A program made the position numbers. Positions 60,701-63,700 of a stretch of DNA of 64,000 bases are shown piece by piece (position 1 is the first letter of the stretch; every line of letters starts with the position of its first letter). The stretch comes from Escherichia coli (GTDB lineage Bacteria; Pseudomonadota; Gammaproteobacteria; Enterobacterales; Enterobacteriaceae). The stretch lies in the NCBI RefSeq assembly GCF_048403405.1, contig NZ_CP183129.1, one strand, 5' to 3'.

Positions 60701-63700
60701 TCACCACTATCTGGCCAATCCCATATCCGCAGAGCAGATTTGCGGCGGATACCCAGATAAACCTATTGTGTTGTGTGATGGCCTGGAGGAAAAACGGCTG
60801 AATGATGGCTCATTATTCACCGACGACGGTGAGGCGCTTTGTTTTAACGGTAATGCGGCTGATGACATGAATCATGAGACGTTTATTGTTCAGCGCGAAA
60901 TCCCCGTAGAGGACTACTGGGATTTCTGCAAGACAGCATACAAACCCTATGACGTGTTTGTAGTCGCGGCATTACTGTTGTTGTACAACCTGTGCCCGGG
61001 ATATTTTTCGGTCTCTTCTGACGGGGATATCCGGGACTGGCAGCCGGTGCTGGACTATGTCAGTCAGGTATTTCCTTATCTTATCCTGACGTTACCGGAA
61101 GGGATAGGTTTACCGGAGGCAGGATAATGGCCAGAGCCTGTACGATACGGGAACTGATAGCGGATTTATCCCGCTGCAATCCGGAGGCATTCGTCTTGTG
61201 TGAGATGTGGTTCCCCGATGATGTTACCTATGTTGATGAAACGGCTTGTCCGGCAGAGACACGGGCAACATTAACGCATGTTGCACATCATTTTGATGCG
61301 GAGCTGGGGATCAACTGGGACACGCTGGCGTGTGCGTTATCGTGTGTCAGAGATGCTGAGCAGAAGGGACTCGATATTTACTTTTATGCCAGTGAAAAGC
61401 GTGGTACAGACAAAAGCCGGATACCCGCCTCACGTTACGCAGAAGCGGACAGCGACGGCGATATTGAAGTCGGGTATTTCCGTAAGGTTAATGCGCTGTT
61501 TAAGTGGGTGCATGACCATATCGGGGCTTTTGAGAACTGTGAAAAGGTGCTGGTGACAGAGGCCCATCTGCGGGCTTTACAGCAGGACTTGCAGGCACTG
61601 ACACCGGAAAACTGTCAGACACGGTTCCCGACCACTGAGGGCTTTTTCTTTGGTTCAACGGCTTATGATGAGGCGTACTGGGCTGATGTGGAAGGCGTCA
61701 GACGCTGGCTGTCAGAGATAACGGAGACGTTTGACTTTGACGCAGAGTCACTGTTTTTTGTGGCCTGGTGGTAATCAGGTAAGGTGTTTCCCCGGGAAGC
61801 ACTGAACACATTTTAATCAGTGTTTCCACTGGAAACGCCGGTTGAAAATTAACCATATTGTTTTTTCACCTGATGGTGTATCTCACCGTCAGGACGGGAT
61901 ACACCTTTTTTATTGAGGGTATTCCGATGAAAAAATCTGACCGTAAACGCCGTCCGGCAGCGGATAAGCCGGTTCGCGATATTTATCAGGAAGTGACTGA
62001 CCGTATTGTGGCCGCGCTGGAAAAAGGCACCCGTCCGTGGAAACGACCATGGCGGCCGTCGGAAGGGACAGGCACCGGTTTTCCGGTGAACGCCCTGACC
62101 GGTCATTCCTACCAGGGGATAAATGTGCTGCTGTTATGGTTGTCGGCGGCGGAGCAGGGCTTTGGTTACGATATCTGGCTGACTTACCGTCAGGCACAGC
62201 AACTGGGTGGCCATGTCCGTAAAGGCGAAATGGCGACGAATACTGTGATATTCAAACCGGTGAAGGTGCCGGCAAAAGACCGTCACGGTGAGCTGCTGCG
62301 GGATGAACACGGTGAGGTGGTGATGACGGAGGTGCCGATGATAAAGGCGAATCCGTTATTTAACATAGCCCAGTGTGATGACCTGCCGGCGCATTTTTAC
62401 GAAAACCGGCGACTACCCGGAGAGGAGACAGCAGGGATAACCCTGCCGGCCACGCACCGGGTGCTGGATATCCTGAATGCCAGCGGCGTGAAGGTGACCA
62501 GTGCGGCGCAGAACCGGGCGTATTACAGTCCGTCACAGGACCGGATTGTGATGCCGCTGTCGTCACAGTTTGACCGGAATGCCGATTACCAGGCCACCTT
62601 ACTGCATGAGTTGGTGCACAGTACCGGTCATCCGTCCAGGCTGGCCCGTGAAGGCATCACCTCATCGTCCCTGAAGTTTGGTGACCCGCTGTACAGTTTT
62701 GAGGAGCTGGTTGCGGAAATGGGCAGCGCTTTTCTTTGTGCGCAGTTAAGCGTCGAGGGAGAAGTGAACCATGAAAGCTATCTTGACAGCTGGCTGCGGG
62801 TACTGAAATCGGACAAAAAAGCGTTGTTCCGGGCCGCCGGGCAGGCCCGCCAGGCCTGTGAGTTTTTACTGAATGTGGCCGCATCCCGACAGGCCGCGTA
62901 GGAGACTGCGATGAACAAAATGACCATTATCCGCTTTCAGTTACTGGTACATCAGTTACTGCAAGTGCATTACGGCATTACGCTGAGTGATACCGGATTG
63001 TCCGATGATGCTGAGGTGTCCCGGATGATTGAACTCGGGATATCGCCGGTATCGGTGGTCAACCGTCTGGTGGATAAGTACCACCTGGATAAACTGAATG
63101 CATCCTGTTATCTGCCGGCATCCCCGTATGTCAGTGACAGCGATGCCTTACTTGCACAGGCTCAGCTGAGCGGTGCCATTAACCCGGATGTCATGCCGGA
63201 TAATCCTTAACGATTAACGACTGACATCTTTCCCGTGAGGGCTTGTTCCTCACGGGATAAGCCCTCTTTTTTATTCTGAAAAGAGGACATCATCATGCCA
63301 AACTGGTGCTCGAACCGACTTGACATCACCTTACACAACGCGGCGGATATGCCGGCTCTTAAACACTGGATATATGCGGATGATGGGATACCCGCCTGGC
63401 AGACGGCGATAGCACAAAGTCTGCATTTGTTGCTGGCCGGCTGCGCGGGGATACTGAAACCGGTCAGACCGCTGTCTTTTCCGCCGTTACCGGAACTGAC
63501 TTCATACGGTGCAACCGGGCCTGTTTCCCCGGGAAACACGGCTTTCACGCACTGGGTTGACCTGCTGATGACTGCACCGGATTTGACACCGTCATGTTGT
63601 CAGCAAATCCATCAGTGGTATCAGATGTGGTTATCTGAAGGCGGGGCGTACCATTCCTGGGACTCGCTGACGGCGACGCAGAAAGCGAGACTGTCCCCGT

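Follow-up and report, generated by a model that had tools for sequence, protein, structure and literature searches.

A predicted two-fold RNA leader and a palindrome array upstream of ardC in a chromosomal ICEPm1-type element of Escherichia coli

The ardC locus and its element

A 64,000-nt stretch of Escherichia coli DNA (RefSeq assembly GCF_048403405.1, contig NZ_CP183129.1), hereafter the window, was analysed with a focus on the region upstream of the anti-restriction gene ardC. The window consists of integrative conjugative element (ICE) DNA of the ICEPm1 type. In the RefSeq annotation it appears as a tRNA-Phe ICE with TIGR037xx transfer genes, TraD, TaaP, a siderophore block of nonribosomal peptide synthetase and polyketide synthase (NRPS/PKS) genes, TraI and an integrase, and the published description of ICEPm1 fits it (PMC11278526). 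ardC occupies 61927-62901 on the + strand, starts with the ATG at 61927 and encodes the Pfam domains ArdcN and zincin-like metallopeptidase MPTase-PolyVal. The open reading frame (ORF) upstream of it spans 61127-61774, with its stop codon ending at 61774. Two features lie between these genes: a repeated palindrome and a structured leader of ~75 nt, which the covariance model described below places at 61860-61932 (+ strand). The 166-nt intergenic stretch folded at -74.2 kcal/mol (z = -8.7 versus shuffles). The leader and the palindrome belong to two element-wide systems, and the feature is more interesting than a preliminary description, made from the sequence of the window alone, had held.

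The element is chromosomal. Positions 61100-62950 showed 100% identity to chromosomal DNA in 12 complete E. coli genomes and 92-97% identity in approximately 12 more, and megablast and blastn searches of this region against plasmids gave zero matches. The ArdC protein is identical in Proteus mirabilis ATCC 29906 and Providencia stuartii.

Competing folds in the ardC leader

The preliminary description had reported a hairpin with a T-run at 61875-61911, 16 bp before the ardC start, and both the hairpin and the distance were correct. Stem A, GGTGTATC (61875-61882), is perfectly paired with stem B, GATACACC (61898-61905), inner pairs lie between them, and T6 (U6 in the RNA) follows at 61906-61911, before the ATG at 61927. 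This + strand structure is referred to as fold T. It is absent from the minimum-energy fold of the region, which consists of HP1, HP2 and P0 on the same strand. HP1 (CCUGAUGGUG / CACCGUCAGG, 61869-61893) is a 10-bp hairpin that competes with fold T. HP2 (61895-61926) has 12 pairs and one bulged A, and the T-run lies in its loop, UUUUAUU (61908-61914). The 3' arm of HP2 carries the Shine-Dalgarno sequence GAGGG (61915-61919) and ends beside the AUG. In P0, the 5' strand UUUUUUCA (61861-61868) pairs with UGAAAAAA (61928-61935) and covers the start codon. Fold T is built from the last four bases of the HP1 5' arm plus the HP1 loop (segment A) and from the HP2 5' arm (segment B). Neither HP1 nor HP2 can coexist with it, and 61875-61882 is shared between HP1 and fold T.

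In the nascent RNA, defined as the transcript before the Shine-Dalgarno strand is made, HP1 of the window allele reached -19.1 kcal/mol and fold T -17.1 kcal/mol, with an equilibrium probability of fold T, P(T), of 3.5%. For the CEC15-type sister ardC allele (locus L002), which is three substitutions away, the corresponding values were -16.7 and -23.6 kcal/mol, with a P(T) of 99%. In the complete leader of the window allele, fold I (P0, HP1 and HP2) reached -34.8 kcal/mol versus -23.2 kcal/mol for fold T, P(T) fell to 1e-8, and the unpaired probability of the Shine-Dalgarno sequence was below 0.03. The hairpin of fold T has the stem of an intrinsic terminator, with 8 bp of perfect pairing, inner pairs, -17.1 kcal/mol and U6 after it. 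It is the favoured nascent fold in the L002 allele and in 51 of 67 family members, but not in the window allele. The leader also has the mutually exclusive terminator and antiterminator helices of an attenuator, both conserved with compensatory changes. Like leaders that sequester the Shine-Dalgarno sequence, it holds this sequence and the start codon within conserved, covarying helices.

All three pairings (HP1, A:B and HP2) are kept in Xenorhabdus ICEs, the ArdC proteins of which are 57-60% identical. Between the window and Xenorhabdus, HP1 shows the compensatory changes T-A to A-T, A-T to G-C and U-G to C-G, the A:B pair changes from GGTGTATC/GATACACC to GGTGTACT/AGTACACC, and HP2 is maintained via shifted G-U pairs. 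The same architecture with unrelated sequence precedes ardC in Chimaeribacter, Morganella, four Pasteurellaceae genera and many Pseudomonas. Among 78 distinct sequences upstream of ardC, 42 folded without any model into HP1 and HP2 in tandem, the end of HP2 being 0-4 nt away from the AUG. A covariance model derived solely from five Xenorhabdus sequences recovered the window leader at 58 bits (E = 8e-15) and, unexpectedly, also matched upstream of other genes in the same loci. The second-round model gave 73 matches from 45 sources, 70 of them on the gene strand, with up to six per 9-kb locus. In the alignment from this model, 92% of the cells were paired (66% in column shuffles, 44-55% in slid controls) and double changes occurred at 21/21 pairs (10/10 in helix 1, 11/11 in helices 2 and 3); the alignment was fitted to the model structure, and these counts are hence biased towards it. 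The MAFFT alignment A1, in which the HP2 3' arm was off by one column between groups, was left out of the pair counts.

Comparison of the sequences indicates that the alternative A:B helix is under selection. Over the 67 distinct copies, the mean A:B energy was -14.6 kcal/mol for cognate strands and -8.6 +/- 0.3 kcal/mol for permuted partners (0/300 permutations as low). The nascent minimum-energy fold included A:B in the 51 copies mentioned, and fold T was on average 3 kcal/mol more stable than HP1. These data bear on the idea of a static intercistronic processing or stability element, in which the hairpins protect mRNA ends, translation is fixed at a low level and A:B has no switching role. 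The distance from the preceding stop codon to the leader was 7-363 nt (median ~40 nt), and most copies are taken as intercistronic because this distance is short; the majority lie 7-60 nt past the stop codon in apparently polycistronic arrays, as a static element might. HP1 would also be 5'-terminal after cleavage in the AU-rich flank, and the failure to find a trigger fits as well. However, a static element would have no need of A:B complementarity, which is kept specifically in 67 different sequences, and the near-equality of HP1 and fold T in the nascent RNA is typical of a switch. We regard the static element as unlikely.

The preliminary description had suggested control by attenuation or antitermination. 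This holds in part, as the T-run hairpin covaries, the exclusive and earlier-transcribed HP1 is conserved and fold T is the nascent fold of most copies. It falls short for the window allele, which favours HP1 by ~2 kcal/mol in the nascent RNA and whose full leader is masked by ~11 kcal/mol, and for many Pseudomonas members, where the U-tract is weak or absent. Counted over the 9 nt after strand B, there were 5-8 U in low-GC hosts (Enterobacterales, Pasteurellaceae) and 1-6 U in Pseudomonas, many members of which have a poor tract (1-3 U). An essentially transcriptional device, with the hairpin and T-run as a working intrinsic terminator and the palindrome as operator of the ardC promoter, would draw on the same covariation of the T stem, on the U-rich tracts of the low-GC hosts, on the 51 copies and the sister allele that favour fold T, and on a subfamily with HP1, strand B and a U-tract but no evident HP2 (e.g. 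L007:1563). Such a device has to contend with an HP1 that is both more stable than fold T in the window allele and transcribed first, and with the poor U-tracts of many Pseudomonas members, and no sensor was identified for it. It would also need neither the covariation of HP2, which is as strong as that of the T stem, nor the constant position of HP2 at 0-4 nt from the start codon. We consider this explanation doubtful. Translational masking is at least as likely as termination, because the ribosome-binding site and the start codon are inaccessible in the fold of lowest energy.

We lean, by a modest margin of belief, towards a combined reading: a parS/bisS-like palindrome array plus a leader of ~75 nt with two folds, in which translational masking is joined by conditional termination. 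The sequence analysis establishes the helices, with their conservation, exclusivity and energies; termination, masking in vivo and the trigger are predictions drawn from them. In fold I, the polymerase would read through while the Shine-Dalgarno sequence and the AUG are buried. In fold T, the top of HP1 would pair with the anti-Shine-Dalgarno strand, with the U-tract next to it and the ribosome-binding site free. HP1, being transcribed first, would block fold T and act as a built-in antiterminator. While the polymerase is on the U-tract, strand B and the HP1 3' arm would compete for the same partner. Should fold T win, transcription could stop 15 nt short of ardC; should the polymerase escape, the formation of HP2 and P0 would leave the message translationally masked. 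The net effect would be low ardC expression from a leaky attenuator and a translational mask, repeated before each cistron of the array. An ON state would need a shift of this balance, either by a factor that opens HP1 or through T-folded transcripts that escaped termination, in which the U-rich tract and the Shine-Dalgarno sequence would be single-stranded.

Several points weigh against this proposal. As drawn, termination and read-through followed by masking both silence ardC, and the ON state is hypothetical. No trigger was found, neither a leader peptide nor a conserved unpaired core resembling a ligand pocket, and the bias in the covariation counts must be kept in mind. There is no conserved leader ORF, as indels break the frame between relatives, and no Rfam aptamer matched.

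Three other candidates were considered for the leader and rejected. A leader peptide, for which TTG 61858 and ATG 61873 offer in-frame extensions, is contradicted by indels that break the frame in relatives. HP1 as a DNA operator does not agree with a sequence that varies freely while pairing is kept, with loops of 3-8 nt and frequent G-U pairs. An RNA thermometer was discarded from the stem lengths, as stems of 10-12 bp would cost ~9-13 kcal/mol to open.

The trp leader/trpE of Bacillus subtilis is a terminator/antiterminator leader with a coupled hairpin that blocks the Shine-Dalgarno sequence. The ardC leader resembles attenuators of this type in its exclusive helices, in the U-tract after one of them and in another helix that hides the downstream ribosome-binding site. 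In contrast to them, its antiterminator pairs the 5' arm of the terminator with the terminator's own loop region, so that the segments pair 1:2, 1:3 and 3:4, whereas those of a classical attenuator pair 1:2, 2:3 and 3:4. The terminator and the Shine-Dalgarno mask of the ardC leader share strand B and are therefore mutually exclusive instead of cooperating. It further differs in that no leader-peptide, protein or ligand sensor was found for it and in being multi-copy, with one leader per cistron.

Copies of the leader across the gene array

Six copies of the leader were found in the window with the covariance model, and five of them precede genes other than ardC. All five lie on the + strand. 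The copy at 58634-58706 (34.7 bits) precedes an ORF starting at 58701. A weaker copy at 59080-59150 (20.5 bits, E 0.0035) ends at an in-frame ATG at 59145. The copy at 60076-60153 lies before an ORF starting at 60148, and fold T is its nascent minimum-energy fold. A weak copy at 60539-60618 (16.2 bits, E 0.035), before the ORF at 60615, has the A:B strands GGCGGAUU/AAUCCGCC followed by U7. The last copy, at 63222-63297 (20.4 bits), with A:B strands GAGGGCUU/AAGCCCUC and then U6, precedes the DUF1281 gene (ATG 63295). Beyond the window, the leader was found before ardC and neighbouring genes in ICEs of Enterobacterales, Pasteurellaceae and Pseudomonas.

No Rfam 15 family of relevance matched 61500-62200 at E values of up to 10, nor was one found in seven related loci. 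No description of the leader was found in the literature that was searched, which is no proof of absence from the literature at large. Tentatively, the leader may belong to a widespread and so far undescribed family of RNA switches, one per cistron (67 distinct copies in the analysed loci, from ICEs of Enterobacterales, Pasteurellaceae and Pseudomonas). Each would switch between two states, a terminator-like fold with the ribosome-binding site exposed and a read-through fold with this site hidden, and a common trigger, possibly linked to entry into a new host, would gate the array of establishment genes. We think this possible, and less probable than the combined reading of the ardC leader and palindrome itself.

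Other structured motifs occur in the ardC gene array. Two STAXI motifs (55958-56115 and 58392-58551) and one EFASI motif (56593-56744) passed the Rfam gathering scores on the gene strand. The STAXI, EFASI and radC motifs (RF01728, RF02957, RF01754) resemble the leader in being structured, in lying in the same ICE arrays on the same strand and in standing beside anti-restriction and DNA-handling genes. They differ in structure; the ardC leader matches none of them and is locked to the start codon. A role in the single-stranded DNA of conjugative transfer, as a signal for priming or as a single-strand promoter, has been suspected for STAXI and EFASI, and the leader might share it. The presence of STAXI (two copies) and EFASI in the same array, and a leader copy 0-85 nt after STAXI in the window, L006 and L011, would suit this idea. 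However, HP2 is anchored at the Shine-Dalgarno sequence and the start codon in all copies, the gene strand has 101 G-U pairs versus 39 A-C mismatches, and stems of 10-12 bp are far below the duplex length that a single-strand promoter needs. Such a role of the leader in single-stranded DNA thus seems highly improbable. The G-U excess, the strand bias and the lock to the start codon point to a gene-strand RNA and away from a DNA or opposite-strand structure.

Some observations concern individual genes of the array. The in-frame ATG 59145 at the end of the second copy suggests that the RefSeq start of this small ORF (59184) is 13 codons too short. In E. coli CEC15, two ORFs are split by 97 bp (L002 6254-6350). 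Besides stop and start codons and a Shine-Dalgarno sequence, this stretch contains a leader copy with a very strong T fold (-28 kcal/mol, U6). Exactly these 97 bp are missing at ~61366 of the window, where both ORFs are joined in frame as a single ORF of 215 aa (61127-61774). CEC15 also carries a group II intron (L002 2558-4945), whose reverse transcriptase is encoded by the opposite strand. Its insertion site is 17 nt upstream from HP1 of the leader copy that is the counterpart of 60076-60153. As an indicator of which hairpin forms, the intron was uninformative; it lies ~13 nt from an own-strand hairpin and not after a T-run.

Downstream of ardC, a CbtA-family toxin-like ORF (62911-63210; Pfam PF06755, E = 5e-13) begins 9 nt past the ardC stop codon, without a leader of its own and with no obvious antitoxin gene adjoining. 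Another ArdC-family gene, a frameshifted pseudogene in RefSeq, occupies the window from 1 to ~670 and starts just outside it; in strain HM670 its upstream region has no leader-like fold (-14.6 kcal/mol, 100 nt).

Palindrome arrays and their likely role

The palindrome that the preliminary description had placed at 61821-61836 does exist, with its start set one base early: the exact core, GTTTCCA-C-TGGAAAC, occupies 61822-61836. The extended form covers 61820-61838 and has 9-bp arms with one mismatch. In full, the palindrome is a 19-bp inverted repeat, GTGTTTCC-N3-GGAAACAC, in which the 9-bp arms flank one central base. This copy (GTGTTTCCACTGGAAACGC) is unit 2 of a direct repeat, and unit 1 (GTGTTTCCCCGGGAAGCAC, 61784-61802) lies exactly 36 bp upstream; neither is assigned to a strand. 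Alleles have either 2 or 3 units before ardC, and the two E. coli alleles with 3 units have the same 36-bp period.

The palindrome is dispersed over the element. The motif GTTTCC-N3-GGAAAC occurs 4 times exactly in the window and 10 times at <=2 mismatches, versus 2.8 +/- 1.7 in shuffled sequences (0/100 shuffles reached 10). Three units with a 36-bp period (35292-35382, no strand assigned) lie directly upstream of traD (ATG 35403); the last unit is degenerate, the array ends 20 bp before the ATG, and the leader motif is absent there. A single perfect copy (63521-63539, no strand assigned) lies within the DUF1281 coding sequence. Another perfect copy lies in the first 75 nt of annotated traI (L001 23866-23916), preceded at a distance of 34 bp by the related palindrome CGCTTTCCCGGAAAGCG. 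Outside the window, the left arm of the element carries three perfect units with a 36-bp period between the convergent STY4528-family and clbS-like genes, and one further copy upstream of a PFL_4669-family gene. Copies were also found close to replication genes. In the Xenorhabdus relatives, a related palindrome (GTTTCGGGGGGAAAC) forms 70-bp tandem arrays downstream of ardC, and no palindrome was found upstream of ardC, though the leader is kept. The palindrome and the hairpin are thus independent modules, because the Xenorhabdus palindromes sit only downstream of ardC while the leader is retained.

Three side observations concern the palindrome. In Xenorhabdus innexi (L007 5517-5810), five 70-bp tandem repeats, each with the palindrome TGTTTCGGGGGGAAACA, overlap both the end of one ORF (512 aa) and the beginning of the following one. 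The left edge of unit 1 (AAGGTGTTTCCC, 61781-61792) is 92% complementary to the strand B region of the leader (61896-61907). The T-stem arms GGTGTATC/GATACACC look like the palindrome half-sites GGTGTTTCC/GGAAACACC, for which coincidence and common descent are both possible.

The element encodes a 549-aa ParB-family protein (TIGR03764), followed immediately by a DUF2857 protein; the palindrome has the pattern of parS/bisS-type sites, a multi-copy palindromic site that shares its element with a ParB-family gene. Transfer competence of ICEclc is switched on by an activator composed of BisD, which is ParB-like, and BisC, a DUF2857 protein (PMC7423338). BisD loads as a cytidine triphosphate (CTP) clamp at two bisS sites, GAGCTATCCCCnGGGGATAGCTC, both of which lie inside genes, and bisS is an 11-bp inverted repeat with one base at its centre (PMC12409273). 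Both ICEs belong to the same superfamily, and in both the ParB-family gene adjoins the DUF2857 gene. bisS and the present palindrome share an odd palindrome with a single central base, a YCCC-n-GGGR core and intragenic copies. They differ in sequence (GAGCTATCCCCnGGGGATAGCTC versus GTGTTTCC-N3-GGAAACAC) and in copy number, with two single sites in ICEclc and at least 13 palindromes here, many of them in 36-bp tandem arrays. By analogy with these systems, we conclude that the palindrome is a putative protein-binding site of the regulatory or partition system of the element itself, and on the same analogy it is a candidate novel site of the parS/bisS kind. The array would most likely be bound by an element-encoded dimeric DNA-binding protein, for which the TIGR03764 ParB-family protein is the best candidate. 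If activation resembles that of the transfer-competence promoters of ICEclc, the array would tie ardC transcription to the activation of the element.

A parS/bisS-like role appears more likely than that of a classical operator; the dispersed intragenic copies and the BisD/BisC-type gene pair are the reasons for this preference. The preliminary description had called the palindrome operator-like, but an operator at an ardC promoter was not supported: no sigma-70-like promoter passed the scan in the intergenic region, copies lie inside genes or between convergent genes, and the Xenorhabdus leader occurs without the palindrome. As a classical repressor operator, the palindrome alone would cause zygotic induction of ardC and the transfer genes in a new host, as Reg576 of p576 or regulons of the ArdK/KorA type do. 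Repeated sites stand upstream of ardC, traD and the PFL_4669 gene, the ardC-proximal unit is centred ~38 bp before the leader, and the establishment genes of p576, including ardC576, are repressed via repeated operators (PMC6294495). The Reg576 regulon is the nearest precedent for a common DNA site upstream of establishment genes, and the repeated site before ardC and other such genes is common to both. In p576, however, a ribbon-helix-helix repressor recognises direct TTATCCC heptamers located at promoters that have been mapped (PMC6294495), whereas the sites here are palindromes and some are intragenic. Perfect copies within the DUF1281 and traI coding regions and a three-unit array between convergent genes are typical of parS/bisS sites and not of operators, and no cognate repressor gene was identified. 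We consider the operator rather unlikely, about as doubtful as the purely transcriptional leader.

Three observations on the palindrome and the promoter tell against the combined reading. The sequence of the palindrome is unlike that of ICEclc bisS, only the architecture being alike, and a search for bisS GCTATCCCCnGGGGATAGC at <=3 mismatches found no match in any locus examined, including near ardC of the Pseudomonas loci. The palindrome centre, ~38 bp upstream of HP1, is also a fitting position for a repressor or a class II activator. No sigma-70-like promoter passed the scan over 61775-61926; the best by eye, TGGAAA(61830)-N18-CATATT(61854), has 8/12 matches, and its RNA would begin just before HP1.

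The sopC centromere of F consists of tandem 43-bp units, each with an inverted repeat that binds SopB. The arrays here share with centromeres of this type the tandem units of fixed period, one ParB-type palindrome per unit and a variable number of units. Compared with sopC, they are short (2-3 units) and dispersed, and several lie a short distance upstream of genes, a position that suggests a role in regulation and not in partition alone. Within this ICE family, the palindrome arrays offer a concrete candidate for the site at which a BisDC-type regulator of the enterobacterial branch would bind.

The survival of a conjugative element on entering a new host depends on ArdC-type anti-restriction genes. 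Elsewhere, the timing of such genes is solved by single-strand promoters in F-like plasmids and by a repressor in p576; we know of no account of how ICEs time the expression of ArdC-type genes. If the proposal is true, a conserved multi-copy leader with a built-in choice of termination or translational masking would add a third way of timing anti-restriction genes. The three short helices of the leader would then offer a directly testable way into how an entire block of uncharacterised ICE genes is expressed.

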